DNA of 64,000 nt, taken from contig OY969934.1 in assembly GCA_963704725.1 (NCBI GenBank), positions 1,568,001 to 1,632,000 on the forward strand, given 5' to 3'. A model generated the notes under the pieces. It did no database searches. It saw only the letters and a list, made by a program, of their open reading frames with translations, and was not told the DNA's origin. The stretch's first letter is position 1, and each line of letters begins with the position of its first letter. Positions 47,856 through 54,050 of this stretch are shown piece after piece. This DNA comes from an uncultured Actinomycetes bacterium. Lineage in GTDB: Bacteria; Actinomycetota; UBA4738; HRBIN12. Made by a program: the position numbers and the translations under genes.

Positions 47856-48113
47856 ATGGGCCGATCCCAGGCGGATGCACCCGCGGCCGGGAGTGGGGGC
47901 TCGGTGCGAGGCTGGGGGATCGCGGTCGTTCGCGCGATCGCGATGCTCGTGGTCGTCTTCGTTGTGTTCGCCGTGGTCCCGAACTGGCTCCTGGGACGCC
48001 TGGCGACGAGGGTGACCTCCACGGGGCGCGACCTCATCCTCGTCGGCTGGTCGACCGTCGCGTTCGTGGGCGCCGGGTGGCTGTTCTTTCGCCTCCAGCG
48101 CGGGGAGCGTTGA
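47856..48113 (+). CDS. Small two-TM membrane protein
   Basis: Two hydrophobic helices; TTGA overlap with flavoprotein gene; start uncertain. Confidence 0.6.
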   Translation: MGRSQADAPAAGSGGSVRGWGIAVVRAIAMLVVVFVVFAVVPNWLLGRLATRVTSTGRDLILVGWSTVAFVGAGWLFFRLQRGER

Positions 48114-49951
48114 GCGTGTCGTTCGTGGCCCGGCAGGTCGGCGGCGAGTGGTTCGACGACAACGTGCCGTGCACCCGCGCCTGCCCCGTGCTGACGATGG
48201 CGGGTCGGTACGTCGCCGCGATCGCGGCCGGCGACGACAGGTTGGCGTACGAGATCGCGCGCCTGCCGAACCCGTTTCCCTCGATCTGCGGCCGCGTCTG
48301 CGCGGCGCCGTGCGAGATCGCGTGCCGACGAGGCTCGATCGACCAGCCGATCGCCATCCGAGCGCTCAAGCGCCACGTGTGCGAGCGGTTCGGCGTCGAG
48401 AGCGAGCACGGCGACGAGGTCTACCGGCGCGCGGCCACGATCGCGCCTCCGCGGAGCGAGCGCATCGCCGTGATCGGCTCGGGCCCGGCCGGCCTTGCCT
48501 GCGCGCACGACCTGGCCACGTTCGGCTATCGGCCGGTCGTGTTCGAGGCCGCGGATCGTCCGGGCGGTCAGATGGTGCTGTCGATCCCGCCGTACCGGCT
48601 CCGCCGAGACCTCCTGGAGAGGGAGATCGACGCCGTGCTCGGCATGGGGGTGGAGGTGCGGACCGAGACGGCGCTCGGCCGCGACTTCACGCTCGCCTCG
48701 CTCTTCGACGACGGCTTCGAGGCGGTCTTCCTCGGGATCGGGGCGACCCGCGGTCGCGACCTGAACATCCCCGGACACGACAAGGACGGCGTCCTCAAGG
48801 CGATCGACTTTCTGCTCAACGCCAGCCTGGGCTACACGGTGGAGCTCGGCGCCGAGGTGCTGGTGATCGGCGGGGGAAACGTGGCCCTCGACGCCGCGCG
48901 GACGGCGCTCCGCACCCCCGCCACGAGTGGCGACGGGGACTCCCTCGCGGAGGCGGGGGAGGTCCAGGCCACGGCGGTGTTCGACGTCGCCCGGACCGCC
49001 GCCCGGATGGGCGCGCGGGTCACGGTCGTCTCGCTCGAGAACCGCGAGGAGATGCCGGCGCACGAATTCGAGATCGAGGAGGCCGAGGTCGAGGGGATCG
49101 CGCTGCGTCACCGGCTGGGGCCGAAGGCGATCGTCGGAAACGGACAGGTCACCGGTCTCGAGGTCCTCGACGTCTCATCCGTGTTCGACGCCGACGGCCG
49201 GTTCAACCCCAAGATGATCGACGGAACCGAGCGGGTCATCCCATGCGACTCGGTGATCATCGCGATCGGACAGTCGCCCGACCTGTCGTGGATGCGTCCG
49301 GAGGACGGCCTCGAGACCGGGCCGGGTGGGACGATCCGGGTCGACTCCGAGTCCCTGGCGACCAGCGACGGGAGGATCTACGCGGGCGGCGACGTCGCCT
49401 TCGGCCCGCGCAACCTGATCGATGCGATCGGCGACGGCCGGCGCGCTGCGGCCTCGATCCATCGGCAGATCGCGGGCGCCGAGCCGCCCCGGCCGACGCT
49501 CTCGAACCGCCGGATGCTGCCGATCGTCTCAGTCAATCGGGGTGCGGGCGGCCGCACGTACACCGAGCGCGATCGCGTCCCCGTTCCCGCCGAGCCCACC
49601 GGCCGCCGGATCGGCTCGCCGGAGGTGGAGCTCGGTTACACGGAGGCGGAGGCCCGCGAGGAGGCCGGCCGATGCCTGCAGTGCTTCCTCAACATCATGC
49701 TCGACGAGACCCGGTGCATCCTGTGCCGGGGATGCGTGGACGTGTGTCCGGAGCGGTGCATCCGGATCCTGCCCGCCGAGCAGGTCGCCGGGATCGAGGT
49801 GCACGAGCCGTCGAGCGTCCTGGTGATCCAGGAGGAGCTGTGCATCCGCTGCGGGCTGTGTGTGGACCGCTGCCCCACGGACGCGCTGTCGCTCGAGGGC
49901 TGGTCGGAGGCGTCCTCGGCGCCGGTCGCGCTCGAGCTGGTGCCGCGGTGA
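48110..49951 (+). CDS. GltD/NfnB-like FAD/NAD(P)H oxidoreductase with C-terminal 2x[4Fe-4S] ferredoxin
   Basis: [58 protein letters not shown] and [12 protein letters not shown]. Confidence 0.92.
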
Positions 49952-49952
49952 G

Positions 49953-51889: not shown

Positions 51890-51899
51890 GAGTCCCGAC

Positions 51900-54050
51900 A
51901 TGGGAGAGAAGATCCGCGACGACCCCGCGCTGGAGCGTTCGACGCGGCGATGGCAGACATCGGGCATGGTCGTGTTCCTCCTCCTCGTCCTCGCCTTCCC
52001 CGTCTACCGGCTGACCGAGGGAGGGCGCCTGGACGACGCGCGGGCGTCGGAGCATGCCGCGCAGATCGCGGCGGGGCGGCAGCTCTGGTCGCTCAACTGC
52101 TCGAGCTGCCACGGGGCGCAGGGAGAGGGCGTGGACGCGCCCGCGCTGAACTCCCAGGAGTTCCTGCAGAGCGTCTCGGACCGGCAGATCCACGGCATCG
52201 TGGCCGGCGGGATCCCGGGCTCGGCGATGCCCGCCTGGCTGGACGAGTACGGCGGACCGCTCACCGATCAGCAGATCGCCGCCCTCGTCGCCTTCGTCCG
52301 GTCCTGGGAGCCGACCGCGCCGAGCGTTCCCGACTGGCGGACCCCGTCCGGAGTCGCCGTGATGCGGGCGATGGCCGGCGCTCGGACCCGGCGCCGCATC
52401 GTGGCCGCCGTGCCGCTCGTGCTGGCGATGACCGCGTGCGTGGCGCAGGGTCAGAACCCGGCGGCGTCGCGCACGGTCGTGTTCATCCCCGGATCGGGCG
52501 CCGCGGAAGGGCCCGCTCTGTTGGGGTACGACGACCCGTCGAAGTCCGGCTCGGTGGTCTCCGTCGCCCTGGGCACCACCTCGCCCAGTCAGATGACGAT
52601 CGAGCTGTCCCAATCGGTGGCGCCCCAGGGCAGCGTCTCCTTCCTGGTCACCAACACCGCGGCCGAGACCCACGAGTTCGTGGTCCTGCAGACCGACCAG
52701 CCCGCCGATGCCTTCCCGGTCGTGTCCTTCGAGGGGGAGGCCAACCGCATCGACGAGGAGGCCACCGGCGTCATCAACGTGGGCGAGACCGGCGACATGG
52801 AGGCCGGTGCCGTCCAGATGCTCACGCTGGACCTGCCGCCCGGTCACTACGCCGTGGTCTGCAACCTGCCGGGCCACTACGCCGCCGGGATGCACCAGGA
52901 CTTCTGGGTCACCCCGACGGGGTCGACCCCGGTCTCCGTCGCCCTGGGCACCACCTCGCCCAGTCAGATGACGATCGAGCTGTCCCAATCGGTGGCGCCC
53001 CAGGGCAGCGTCTCCTTCCTGGTCACCAACACCGCGGCCGAGACCCACGAGTTCGTGGTCCTGCAGACCGACCAGCCCGCCGATGCCTTCCCGGTCGTGT
53101 CCTTCGAGGGGGAGGCCAACCGCATCGACGAGGAGGCCACCGGCGTCATCAACGTGGGCGAGACCGGCGACATGGAGGCCGGTGCCGTCCAGATGCTCAC
53201 GCTGGACCTGCCGCCCGGTCACTACGCCGTGGTCTGCAACCTGCCGGGCCACTACGCCGCCGGGATGCACCAGGACTTCTGGGTCACCCCGACGGGGTCG
53301 ACCCCGGTCTCCGTCGCCCTGGGCACCACCTCGCCCAGTCAGATGACGATCGAGCTGTCCCAATCGGTGGCGCCCCAGGGCAGCGTCTCCTTCCTGGTCA
53401 CCAACACCGCGGCCGAGACCCACGAGTTCGTGGTCCTGCAGACCGACCAGCCCGCCGATGCCTTCCCGGTCGTGTCCTTCGAGGGGGAGGCCAACCGCAT
53501 CGACGAGGAGGCCACCGGCGTCATCAACGTGGGCGAGACCGGCGACATGGAGGCCGGTGCCGTCCAGATGCTCACGCTGGACCTGCCGCCCGGTCACTAC
53601 GCCGTGGTCTGCAACCTGCCGGGCCACTACGCCGCCGGGATGCACCAGGACTTCTGGGTCACCCCGACGGGGTCGACCCCGGTCTCCGTCGCCCTGGGCA
53701 CCACCTCGCCCAGTCAGATGACGATCGAGCTGTCCCAATCGGTGGCGCCCCAGGGCAGCGTCTCCTTCCTGGTCACCAACACCGCGGCCGAGACCCACGA
53801 GTTCGTGGTCCTGCAGACCGACCAGCCCGCCGATGCCTTCCCGGTCGTGTCCTTCGAGGGGGAGGCCAACCGCATCGACGAGGAGGCCACCGGCGTCATC
53901 AACGTGGGCGAGACCGGCGACATGGAGGCCGGTGCCGTCCAGATGCTCACGCTGGACCTGCCGCCCGGTCACTACGCCGTGGTCTGCAACCTGCCGGGCC
54001 ACTACGCCGCCGGGATGCACCAGGACTTCTGGGTCACCCCGCGCCCCTGA
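51900..54050 (+). CDS. Membrane cytochrome c fused to four tandem cupredoxin domains (possibly two genes)
   Basis: TM, CSSCH and AMPAW; internal signal RTRRR...MTAC; four copies of HEFVVL...CNLPGHYAAGM. Confidence 0.85.
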   Translation: MGEKIRDDPALERSTRRWQTSGMVVFLLLVLAFPVYRLTEGGRLDDARASEHAAQIAAGRQLWSLNCSSCHGAQGEGVDAPALNSQEFLQSVSDRQIHGIVAGGIPGSAMPAWLDEYGGPLTDQQIAALVAFVRSWEPTAPSVPDWRTPSGVAVMRAMAGARTRRRIVAAVPLVLAMTACVAQGQNPAASRTVVFIPGSGAAEGPALLGYDDPSKSGSVVSVALGTTSPSQMTIELSQSVAPQGSVSFLVTNTAAETHEFVVLQTDQPADAFPVVSFEGEANRIDEEATGVINVGETGDMEAGAVQMLTLDLPPGHYAVVCNLPGHYAAGMHQDFWVTPTGSTPVSVALGTTSPSQMTIELSQSVAPQGSVSFLVTNTAAETHEFVVLQTDQPADAFPVVSFEGEANRIDEEATGVINVGETGDMEAGAVQMLTLDLPPGHYAVVCNLPGHYAAGMHQDFWVTPTGSTPVSVALGTTSPSQMTIELSQSVAPQGSVSFLVTNTAAETHEFVVLQTDQPADAFPVVSFEGEANRIDEEATGVINVGETGDMEAGAVQMLTLDLPPGHYAVVCNLPGHYAAGMHQDFWVTPTGSTPVSVALGTTSPSQMTIELSQSVAPQGSVSFLVTNTAAETHEFVVLQTDQPADAFPVVSFEGEANRIDEEATGVINVGETGDMEAGAVQMLTLDLPPGHYAVVCNLPGHYAAGMHQDFWVTPRP
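52556..54041 (+). repeat. Tandem repeat, 375-bp unit, about 3.96 copies
   Basis: Units start 52556, 52931, 53306, 53681; no mismatch seen by eye and ORF translations in several frames repeat exactly. Confidence 0.97.

Follow-up and report, generated by a model that had tools for sequence, protein, structure and literature searches.

An accessory Rieske/cytochrome b6 operon with a putatively wired NfnB-like iron–sulfur flavoprotein and a tandem cupredoxin array in an uncultured actinomycete

The DNA analysed here is a window of 64,000 nucleotides from an uncultured Actinomycetes bacterium (assembly GCA_963704725.1, contig OY969934.1, positions 1,568,001 to 1,632,000), and its plus strand carries at 47856–54050 an operon of six genes that would specify an accessory Rieske/cytochrome b6-type complex with its own NAD(P)-type flavoprotein. 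The operon opens with a gene for an 85-aa membrane protein with two predicted transmembrane (TM) helices (47856–48113; an open reading frame, ORF, with a third-position G+C, GC3, of 0.87). It is followed by genes for a 611-aa iron–sulfur (Fe–S) flavoprotein (48116–49951; matches in Pfam, NCBIfam and the Protein Data Bank, PDB), a 279-aa cytochrome b6-type subunit of four helices (49953–50792; PF00033, Cytochrome_B, E 1.5e-40), a 170-aa subunit IV (50779–51291; PF00032, Cytochrom_B_C, E 2.7e-11) and a 198-aa Rieske [2Fe-2S] protein exported by the twin-arginine (Tat) route (51293–51889; PF00355, E 1.2e-9). The last frame, of 722 aa (51882–54050), joins a monoheme cytochrome c to four cupredoxin domains. 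For the five larger proteins, Pfam and NCBIfam leave no doubt about the family, and all six parts listed earlier by a sequence-only reading, a model's annotation made from the letters alone, were recovered at these positions and on this strand. In a window with a G+C of about 0.70, real genes are marked by GC3 values of 0.85–0.96, and the six operon frames lie at 0.87–0.95. Successive genes are separated or overlap by +2, +1, −14, +1 and −8 nt, spacings that indicate tight (translational) coupling.

The flavoprotein gene is taken to start at GTG 48116, with TTG 48110 and GTG 48125 as alternatives. Its product comprises a Fer4_20 domain (residues 16–91), a Pyr_redox_2 domain (116–441) and two Fer4 motifs (527–592), and no hydrophobic segment was seen at the N-terminus of the translation. 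This agrees with the sequence-only reading, which had described a GltD/NfnB-like flavoprotein without export signal, with N-terminal Fe–S motifs and two additional [4Fe-4S] clusters, and since an export signal is lacking the protein should be cytoplasmic. Residues 14–454 are homologous to the NfnB/GltD/DPD family, by sequence as well as by Foldseek. The closest PDB chains in sequence are NfnABC (9n5u_A, 1.1e-85) and Nfn-ABC (9bov_A, 2e-81), followed by StnC (8oh5_C, 6.9e-74), NfnI-L (5jca_L, 7.8e-65) and GltD (6s6s_G, 2.5e-48), and the NCBIfam model PRK12771 scores 418 bits, under its cut-off of 516. An AlphaFold2 model built from a 56-row alignment (pLDDT 80.5, pTM 0.80; less confident in an insert at residues 268–298 and in a linker near 459–479) retrieved the same top relatives in Foldseek. 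Seventeen cysteines are invariant in the 56 aligned sequences and fall into four groups (C23/C58/C62/C66/C70, C520/C523, C534–C544 and C576–C586), and position 19 is a cysteine in at least 90% of them. We read the protein as an NfnB/GltD-like FAD and NAD(P)(H) module with cysteine sets for four [4Fe-4S] clusters.

The first Fe–S domain of the flavoprotein seems to be circularly permuted, in that the late part of the Fer4_20 profile is matched near the N-terminus (profile positions 29–107 by residues 16–91) and the early part far downstream (profile positions 6–28, which carry a CxxC pair, by residues 502–524, encoded at 49619–49687). When residues 490–535 were scanned alone, Fer4_20 was the only match, at profile positions 6–28 (E 5.6e-4; 20.1 bits, below cut-off), and the stretch R519-C520-x-x-C523 within it is invariant, with C520 and C523 present in 56/56 sequences. 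After the flavin domains, the chain thus seems to return to complete its first Fe–S domain and then to run into a NuoI-like ferredoxin domain (49694–49891), in which two invariant CxxCxxCxxxCP motifs (residues 527–592) provide for 2x[4Fe-4S] and for which NuoI (TIGR01971, 2.5e-13) is the best NCBIfam match. This C-terminal domain is presumed to serve for docking and as part of the electron wire. A separate peculiarity is the insert at residues 268–298 (window 48917–49009), a family-specific stretch of 30 residues in the NAD(P)-binding domain that is predicted to be disordered; it is flanked by two DxARTAxR-like helix copies, both of which align to one and the same segment of 9n5u_A and which look like a small internal duplication.

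The cytochrome b finds its best PDB matches in cyanobacterial and plant b6 chains (8.5e-41), to which residues 78–253 align without gaps at 36–211. Histidines H128, H142, H229 and H244 are invariant in 56 sequences and correspond to b6 positions 86, 100, 187 and 202, where b6 ligates its two b hemes. Where b6 has the cysteine that binds heme c_n, the window protein has an arginine (LRLGF in place of CxGG). About 20 residues before it stands an extra histidine, H59, in the motif LHxxPVK, which is invariant in the 56-row alignment, and the motif LHxxP[VAT][KR] recurs in all 77 listed flavoprotein-linked cytochromes b of the survey described below. In AlphaFold3 models of complexes from the anaerobic ammonium-oxidising (anammox) bacterium Kuenenia stuttgartiensis, a histidine ahead of helix A (His43 or His62), contributed by each monomer, holds an additional b heme that faces the oxidoreductase (PMC12954380). 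The Qo motif of subunit IV is APWY (KAPWYF), one of the six major Qo patterns (PMC4122944), and it is shared by 29/31 actinobacterial and 43/44 other flavoprotein-linked subunit IV ORFs. The Rieske protein has the boxes CPHLGC and CPCHGSVY and an RRRF twin-arginine motif; RRx[FLIVM] occurs within the first 70 residues of 78/80 homologous Rieske ORFs. The serine and tyrosine of its second box are those that have been linked to a high potential in Rieske proteins (PMC12954380).

The frame that closes the operon opens at GTG 51882, and an ATG at 51900 fits the start of the relatives' cytochromes c (MGEK...). The membrane-anchored cytochrome c (51900–52361) is matched by PF13442/PF00034 at residues 60–141, and CSSCH is the one c-type heme motif in the 722-aa frame. 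Beyond it come four SoxE (PF06525), or sulfocyanin-type, stretches, which would form a cupredoxin lipoprotein with four type-1 copper domains (52362–54050). They are encoded by a perfect tandem DNA repeat at 52556–54041 (Tandem Repeats Finder: 375 bp × 4.0 copies, 100% matches, 0% indels, score 2972), with one cupredoxin per unit. Each of the four identical repeats displays H...C-x4-H-x4-M, with ETHEF and CNLPGHYAAGM found in all of them. The closest solved chain is auracyanin B (1ov8_A), whose copper loop aligns as CxxPGHYxAGM, and the first histidine aligns with 6kol_A. By comparison with the copper ligands of these two structures, the repeats are type-1 copper domains with His, Cys, His and Met as ligands.

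A cytochrome c with four cupredoxins had been proposed from the sequence alone, and the domains are indeed present, but the single protein probably results from two genes having fused locally in frame. Eight relatives have a separate cytochrome c gene of 151–157 aa, with ...PDWRTPSGG and a stop at its end, followed in a different frame by a cupredoxin gene that carries a lipoprotein signal of its own, whereas in the window both lie in one frame with no stop between them. An internal lipobox-like signal is kept in the window frame (MRAMAGARTRRRIVAAVPLVLAMTAC, also given as RTRRRIVAAVPLVLAMTAC), ATG 52362 is preceded by GGAG (52350–52353) with an 8-nt spacer, and at window 52330–52370 a TGA in another frame overlaps this internal ATG (GTGATG). 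With a second hydrophobic segment, a fused product would have its copper domains facing the wrong way across the membrane, and we therefore think that translation of the cupredoxin lipoprotein still begins at its own start or that a small indel in the assembly has produced the fusion. The lipoprotein is thus probably also started at ATG 52362, and the fusion could be due either to a real small indel or to an assembly error. Type-1 motifs number 5, 5, 5, 5, 4, 4, 3, 3, 1 and 1 in relatives, where one of the counts of five (locus L004) is split over three frames. None was found in L009, nor in five other actinobacterial loci checked (L021, L040, L085, L086 and L090, four of them Acidimicrobiia-type), and five further loci stop at a contig edge. 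This spread of 1 to 5 copies between relatives suggests that the array is still growing and shrinking, or that its units evolve in concert.

The association of the flavoprotein with Rieske/b genes extends far beyond this genome. Public data hold more than 120 clusters of the flavoprotein at ≥70% identity, mostly labelled only 'Actinomycetota bacterium', and 3592 cluster representatives match it at E 1e-30 or better. In 40 related genomes, a full-length copy was found in six (G009, G010, G021, G023, G024 and G036), of which two belong to the 13 congeners; the 40 include two unpublished genomes (G029 and G037) without the flavoprotein and with a cytochrome b match, from which no locus was taken and on which no claim depends. 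All eight loci of the six carriers have the genes for flavoprotein, b6, subunit IV, Rieske protein and cytochrome c in the same order. Three of the eight are whole-operon copies in G010: two (L004 and L005, on G010:C7) lie about 14 kb apart on one contig, and the third (L006, on G010:C8) shares its flanks with the second copy and has a flavoprotein gene interrupted by a frame break, so that it may be a strain variant binned together with the others or a decaying copy.

A wider survey with an 11-row flavoprotein alignment, limited to one genome per species and with ORF starts picked automatically, yielded 80 loci, of which 77 were evaluable and three end at a contig edge. The Actinomycetota among them comprise unclassified Actinomycetota, Acidimicrobiia, Microthrixaceae and Ilumatobacter; there are many Acidobacteriota, including the isolates Geothrix campi and G. 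terrae, as well as Ignavibacteria and other Bacteroidota, Eremiobacterota, Neomarinimicrobiota, Binatota, Zixibacteria, a betaproteobacterial metagenome-assembled genome and Ca. Scalindua. Flavoprotein-bearing complexes are thereby found in at least nine phylum-level groups, cultivated Geothrix and aerobic soil Actinomycetota included. In 77/77 evaluable loci a Rieske or cytochrome b gene starts no more than 500 nt downstream of the flavoprotein gene on the same strand. The gene order is flavoprotein–b6–IV–Rieske–c in Actinomycetota (23 complete cases) and flavoprotein–Rieske–b6–IV in other phyla (41 complete cases). The flavoprotein of Ca. Scalindua, an anammox bacterium, is 47% identical to that of the window over residues 11–611 and likewise lies beside Rieske/b genes. 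An outcome that would have spoken against the sequence-only reading by its own account, a flavoprotein not conserved beside these genes, is contradicted by both the relatives and the survey, and the flavoprotein is to all appearances a dedicated partner of Rieske/b genes. Among the non-actinobacterial loci with enough flank, 28/38 have after subunit IV an ORF with eight CxxCH motifs, the octaheme cytochrome that has been described from Kuenenia, Nitrospina and Methylomirabilis (PMC3578206). In Actinomycetota the octaheme cytochrome appears to have been replaced by a monoheme c, and cupredoxins to have been added in the lineage of this genome.

What the operon is in its own genome becomes clear from a second locus. 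PF00033 has only two matches in the genome, both of the short b6 type, and the separate qcrCAB that the sequence-only reading had suggested looking for is not represented by any long actinobacterial qcrB. The second Rieske/b locus lies outside the window (G000:C1, about 3046900–3050300; L003:6940–10296) and is divergent from a caa3-type oxidase operon whose subunit II has a c-type heme motif. It consists of genes for a small TM protein, a 132-aa 2x[4Fe-4S] ferredoxin, b6, subunit IV and the Rieske protein. The b6 has FCLGG at the heme c_n site and the same extra histidine (YHLHPVK), and the subunit IV, with 305 aa, has an Ala/Pro-rich N-terminus and APWY. The b6, subunit IV and Rieske protein are 50%, 42% and 40% identical to those of the window, and the ferredoxin is 40% identical to residues 526–610 of the flavoprotein over 92 aa (E 2.6e-19). 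This operon was found in the same order in 15/15 relatives sampled (in one it is cut by the contig end after b6), and the free ferredoxin occupies the same position in 16/16 genomes examined, own genome included. A cytochrome b match is present in 24/24 high-quality genomes, and the second-locus type of cytochrome b is present in nearly all relatives, whereas among the 40 relatives the window type was found only where the flavoprotein was found. A ferredoxin paralogue and a matching gene order in the housekeeping locus indicate that the ferredoxin domain is a regular component of this type of complex, and the confinement of the window-type cytochrome b to flavoprotein carriers marks the window operon as accessory. 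On this comparison the operon is taken to be an accessory paralogue of the housekeeping bc operon, in which the ferredoxin subunit would have gained an NAD(P)/FAD module.

The 85-aa protein that opens the window operon fits the same comparison. It has two hydrophobic helices, as judged by eye, and no family was matched in Pfam or NCBIfam, but hhalign pairs it with the small TM protein at the head of the housekeeping bc operon (probability 76.5%, E 2.2e-5, 70 columns). Its gene was detected by tblastn upstream of the flavoprotein in 7/8 of the relatives' loci and in 7/80 of the survey loci. The protein is a probable small subunit of the complex.

A quick maximum-likelihood tree of 75 cytochromes b (IQ-TREE, with SH-aLRT supports), from which 21/79 flavoprotein-linked ORFs with lengths outside 230–300 aa, including that of Scalindua, were left out, resolves three clean groups: flavoprotein-linked cytochromes b of Actinomycetota (support 99), housekeeping ones (99) and flavoprotein-linked ones of other phyla (97). 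The tree is unrooted and so makes no statement on which of the groups gave rise to which. Minus-strand cytochrome b matches near the operon in Acidimicrobiia had been considered as housekeeping loci and were rejected, the proteins being 674–741 aa long and only 25–29% identical to the housekeeping cytochrome b, and they were dropped from the tree. They are encoded in L038, L052, L061, L073 and L076 (about 3400–4600, minus strand), roughly 3.5–4 kb upstream of the flavoprotein operon, and their cytochrome b-like part is N-terminal. Beside the protein, L038 and L076 show a short ferredoxin-like match, and the same pair of matches occurs in L039 and L086.

The surroundings of the operon say little about its function. 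Upstream lie genes for an aminoacyl-tRNA synthetase and for an ABC transporter with an NMT1-type binding protein, and downstream a gene for pyruvate phosphate dikinase. Because these flanking genes are kept beside the operon in the same genus only, the operon can be regarded as a self-contained module, and the synthetase, the transporter, its binding protein and the dikinase were rejected as functional partners. A scan of 47500–55000 found no promoter-like site and three terminator-like sites, all within coding sequence and against 1.2 expected by chance, so that the scan is uninformative. A search of sequencing runs with 47856–52500 returned one DNA run (0.05 share of words) and zero RNA runs, a result that is silent on expression and habitat. 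Elsewhere in the window, positions 20001–22000, inside a long plus-strand frame at 19433–22381, hold the window's maximum in G+C (0.765) and its strongest AT skew (−0.335). Elsewhere in the genome, two ORFs resemble the large subunit of [NiFe]-hydrogenase (G000:C1:2478377–2479939 and 276309–278408, about 430–480 aa). PF00374 is matched in 6/7 operon carriers versus 9/34 non-carrier relatives (Fisher p 0.006, an overstated significance since the genomes are kin). Oxidation of H2 at the quinone level was considered as a possible reason for making NAD(P)H from quinol, an idea that plays no part in the reading given below.

Taken as a whole, the six gene products would assemble into a single membrane complex, accessory in role and belonging to those of the Rieske/cytochrome b6 type that bear an NAD(P) oxidoreductase. 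Facing the cytoplasm, the flavoprotein would bind NAD(P)(H) at its FAD and lead into a wire of four [4Fe-4S] clusters, two in the permuted Fer4_20 domain and two in the NuoI-like domain, by which it may dock beneath the cytochrome b dimer. The membrane part would be formed by cytochrome b6, with two b hemes, no c_n cysteine and H59 on the cytoplasmic (N) side, together with subunit IV with its APWY Qo site and the small two-helix subunit. The outer part would consist of the Tat-exported Rieske protein, the anchored monoheme cytochrome c and the lipoprotein with its four blue-copper domains. Menaquinol would be oxidised at Qo and its two electrons split, one running downhill through the Rieske protein, cytochrome c and the cupredoxin chain to the caa3 oxidase or another high-potential acceptor, and the other through hemes bL and bH, perhaps via a heme on H59, into the Fe–S wire, to FAD and finally to NAD(P)+. 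The genome encodes one heme-copper oxidase, which is of the caa3 type.

The two parts of this proposal differ in strength. That the flavoprotein is a wired subunit of the Rieske/b complex is, from gene content and conservation, very probable. That electrons flow from quinol to NAD(P)+ by bifurcation is the direction we favour, and only tentatively, as falling somewhat short of an even chance. The same scheme has been put forward for the anammox complexes, whose Rieske proteins have potentials of +303 and +335 mV, and with a Rieske protein near +300 mV, as measured there, the energetics would permit NAD(P)+ reduction (PMC12954380).

Several points limit this proposal or weigh against it. A complex prediction with two cytochromes b and flavoprotein residues 485–611 scored 0.01 against a mark of 0.32, which speaks neither for nor against binding of the flavoprotein to cytochrome b. 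The sequence sets no constraint on the direction of flow. H59 may or may not be equivalent to the anammox heme-ligand histidine ahead of helix A. The c_n cysteine present in the anammox models is absent here and in nearly all flavoprotein-linked cytochromes b (only 2/77 listed, L080 and L091, have a cysteine at this position), so that the N-side path may differ. Both the Ser/Tyr Rieske signature and APWY also occur in the housekeeping locus, hence neither singles out the window complex. Two operons of the complex I type (two NuoH matches) are already present in the genome. RuBisCO was not found in it, and a particular need for NAD(P)H made from quinol is therefore not evident.

The main rival reverses the flow on the N-side, from NAD(P)H via FAD and the Fe–S wire to heme bH/Qi, which would turn the enzyme into an NAD(P)H:cytochrome c/cupredoxin oxidoreductase that has a Q cycle built in and combines complexes I and III. 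GltD- and DPD-type enzymes run their FAD and two-cluster module as an NAD(P)H input wire, and the window flavoprotein is homologous to these relatives in that very module. Such a flow would be strongly exergonic and need no special potentials, it would suit an aerobic host with one caa3-type oxidase, and it would be analogous to the ferredoxin/FNR (ferredoxin–NADP reductase) input into b6f in cyclic electron flow; Zhang et al. (2001, cited in PMC5600118) reported FNR among the subunits of the chloroplast b6f complex. On the other hand, the closest homologues of the flavoprotein are bifurcating Nfn/Stn-type proteins rather than GltD, the two NuoH-containing loci are already there, and the published anammox reading favours NAD(P)+ reduction (PMC12954380). 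Reverse flow is therefore a possibility that we regard as rather unlikely.

It could also be that electrons enter from outside, with an external high-potential donor feeding the cupredoxins, cytochrome c and Rieske protein and, from there, menaquinone and/or NAD(P)+, the uphill transport being paid for by proton-motive force or by a low-potential electron, as proposed for the bc complexes of iron oxidisers. Kao and Hunte suggested uphill transport for APWY complexes (PMC4122944), and APWY is present in both subunit IV proteins of the genome; moreover, the cupredoxins are sulfocyanin/auracyanin-like, and a number varying from 1 to 5 might suit a wire through the cell wall. Since the housekeeping complex beside the oxidase is also of the APWY type, however, the motif is no mark of reverse operation here. 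With no donor-oxidising enzyme in or beside the operon, flanks conserved within the genus only and no RuBisCO found in the genome, we consider uphill transport improbable. Finally, a soluble flavoprotein that is co-transcribed without docking, for instance as a redox-balancing NAD(P)H:ferredoxin-type oxidoreductase, would agree with the soluble-enzyme names that relatives bear in the Joint Genome Institute (JGI) annotation ('formate dehydrogenase beta subunit' or 'GltD-like oxidoreductase/ferredoxin'), but it is most improbable given the adjacency in 77/77 evaluable loci across many phyla and two gene orders, which makes mere co-transcription unlikely, the paralogous free ferredoxin at the same position of the housekeeping operon in 16/16 genomes, and the comigration that de Almeida et al. 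(2016, as cited in PMC12954380) are said to have seen with the complex of anammox bacteria.

Should quinol-driven NAD(P)+ reduction apply, cells with such a complex would obtain NAD(P)H straight from quinol, using a high-potential acceptor as sink and without recourse to proton-motive force or to complex I run in reverse. In Actinomycetota the outer module would have been remade with a cytochrome c and a blue-copper wire that can be lengthened. The housekeeping bc complex of the order, which has a free NuoI-like ferredoxin and the extra histidine, would also trade electrons with the cytoplasm, and electron exit on the N-side would be a general and overlooked property of this branch of bc complexes. 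The joint reading, in which a widespread, flavoprotein-bearing APWY class bifurcates electrons from quinol to NAD(P)H, Actinomycetota attach a copper wire and the housekeeping bc is also N-side-exchanging, is put forward as a speculation and is, as a whole, doubtful. Rieske/b complexes bearing an NAD(P) oxidoreductase have posed a question of function ever since they came to notice in anammox genomes, and anammox bacteria are hard to work with. The strict linkage of flavoprotein and Rieske/b genes reaches well beyond them, to two cultivated Geothrix isolates among others, and the aerobic actinobacterial version has a simple copper-based outer module. The housekeeping complex with ferredoxin only and the window complex with ferredoxin plus flavoprotein form a natural series in more tractable hosts. 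If quinol does bifurcate to NAD(P)+, models of NAD(P)H supply in aerobes and lithotrophs would need revising, as would genome predictions that label these genes 'formate dehydrogenase beta subunit' or 'glutamate synthase small subunit'.

The sequence-only reading had named the system as its best candidate for an undescribed one, which it is not, the kind of complex being already in print (PMC12954380; PMC5600118; PMC4122944). In the literature consulted we found no description of an actinobacterial outer (P) side made of a monoheme c and a variable array of type-1 cupredoxins, of flavoprotein-linked cytochromes b as generally devoid of the heme c_n cysteine, of a circularly permuted Fe–S domain in the flavoprotein, or of a free NuoI-like ferredoxin in this order's ordinary housekeeping bc operon; the supplements of PMC5600118 and PMC4122944 might list such loci. 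What appears to be new here is thus the actinobacterial P-side, the missing c_n cysteine and the permuted Fe–S domain, within a complex that is itself of a known kind.

Among known systems, the closest are the complexes Kuste4569–4574 and Kustd1480–1485 of K. stuttgartiensis, the subject of a proposal by Kartal et al. (2013) and of Hauser et al. (2025, PMC12954380). They carry a putative NAD(P) oxidoreductase, all subunits have been reported to comigrate in the case of Kuste4569–4574, and in the AlphaFold3 models four Fe–S clusters and FAD lie under the b dimer (PMC12954380). Shared with the window complex are a b6-like four-helix cytochrome b, subunit IV, a Rieske protein with the high-potential Ser and Tyr signature, a cytoplasmic NAD(P) oxidoreductase with FAD and four Fe–S clusters whose gene lies among the others, a histidine before helix A and, for Scalindua, a flavoprotein with the 47% identity given above. 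The differences are on the P-side, where a monoheme c and type-1 cupredoxins stand in place of hexa- and octaheme cytochromes and a protein like hydroxylamine oxidoreductase (HAO), in the gene order (flavoprotein–b6–IV–Rieske–c here), in subunit IV, which is short here (170 aa) and has five helices in the anammox complexes (PMC12954380), and in the CxGG cysteine for heme c_n, which is absent here and present in the Kuenenia models. The CxGG site is hence a feature of those models and not necessarily of the whole kind. The host of the window complex is an aerobic, presumably monoderm actinobacterium.

Two published groupings give a wider frame. Short cytochromes b of 'subfamily G' (Dibrova et al. 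2013, 2017; PMC5600118) are described as occurring 'in many other cases' together with NAD(P)-binding Fe–S proteins, and the APWY clade that Kao and Hunte defined (2014; PMC4122944) contains split cytochromes b from Rubrobacteridae and Ilumatobacter. As in the window, a short cytochrome b goes together with a large NAD(P)-binding Fe–S protein and with APWY, in many phyla including deep-branching Actinobacteria, a likeness in APWY motif and flavoprotein co-occurrence. The portions of these papers drawn on here describe neither the actinobacterial c/cupredoxin module nor the ferredoxin subunit of the housekeeping operon. The cytochrome b6f complex with FNR offers the closest solved cytochrome b (the b6 matches at 8.5e-41), the same split into b6 and subunit IV, a copper acceptor (plastocyanin) and a reported flavoprotein NADP reductase on the N-side. 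The window complex, in contrast, lacks both cytochrome f and the heme c_n cysteine and stands outside any chlorophyll context, and its flavoprotein is NfnB-like, has four Fe–S clusters and is encoded in the operon. With NfnB, NfnABC, StnABC and GltD the flavoprotein shares the FAD/NAD(P) module and two [4Fe-4S] clusters over residues 14–454. It differs from them in having no NfnA-type partner, in the permuted Fer4_20 domain, the added NuoI-like domain and the disordered insert at 268–298, and in that its partner would be a membrane cytochrome b.

The actinobacterial QcrCAB complex has the same menaquinol-oxidising Rieske/b role in Actinomycetota, but QcrB is long and unsplit and QcrC is diheme, whereas the window has split b6 and IV subunits and a monoheme c. 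The NCBIfam models for QcrB_actin, QcrC_actin and QcrA_actin accordingly score only 112, 34.9 and 19.4 bits against cut-offs of 500, 200 and 275, in line with the sequence-only reading that the complex is non-canonical for Actinomycetota. On the outer side, the nearest parallels are the SoxM complex of Sulfolobus, which uses the sulfocyanin SoxE, and the auracyanin of Chloroflexus. SoxMEFGHI are named in PMC4122944. In these systems, too, a membrane-anchored type-1 cupredoxin replaces a soluble cytochrome c beside a Rieske/b or other quinol-oxidising complex, whereas the window operon combines four identical tandem domains in one lipoprotein with a cytochrome c and with a flavoprotein on the N-side.

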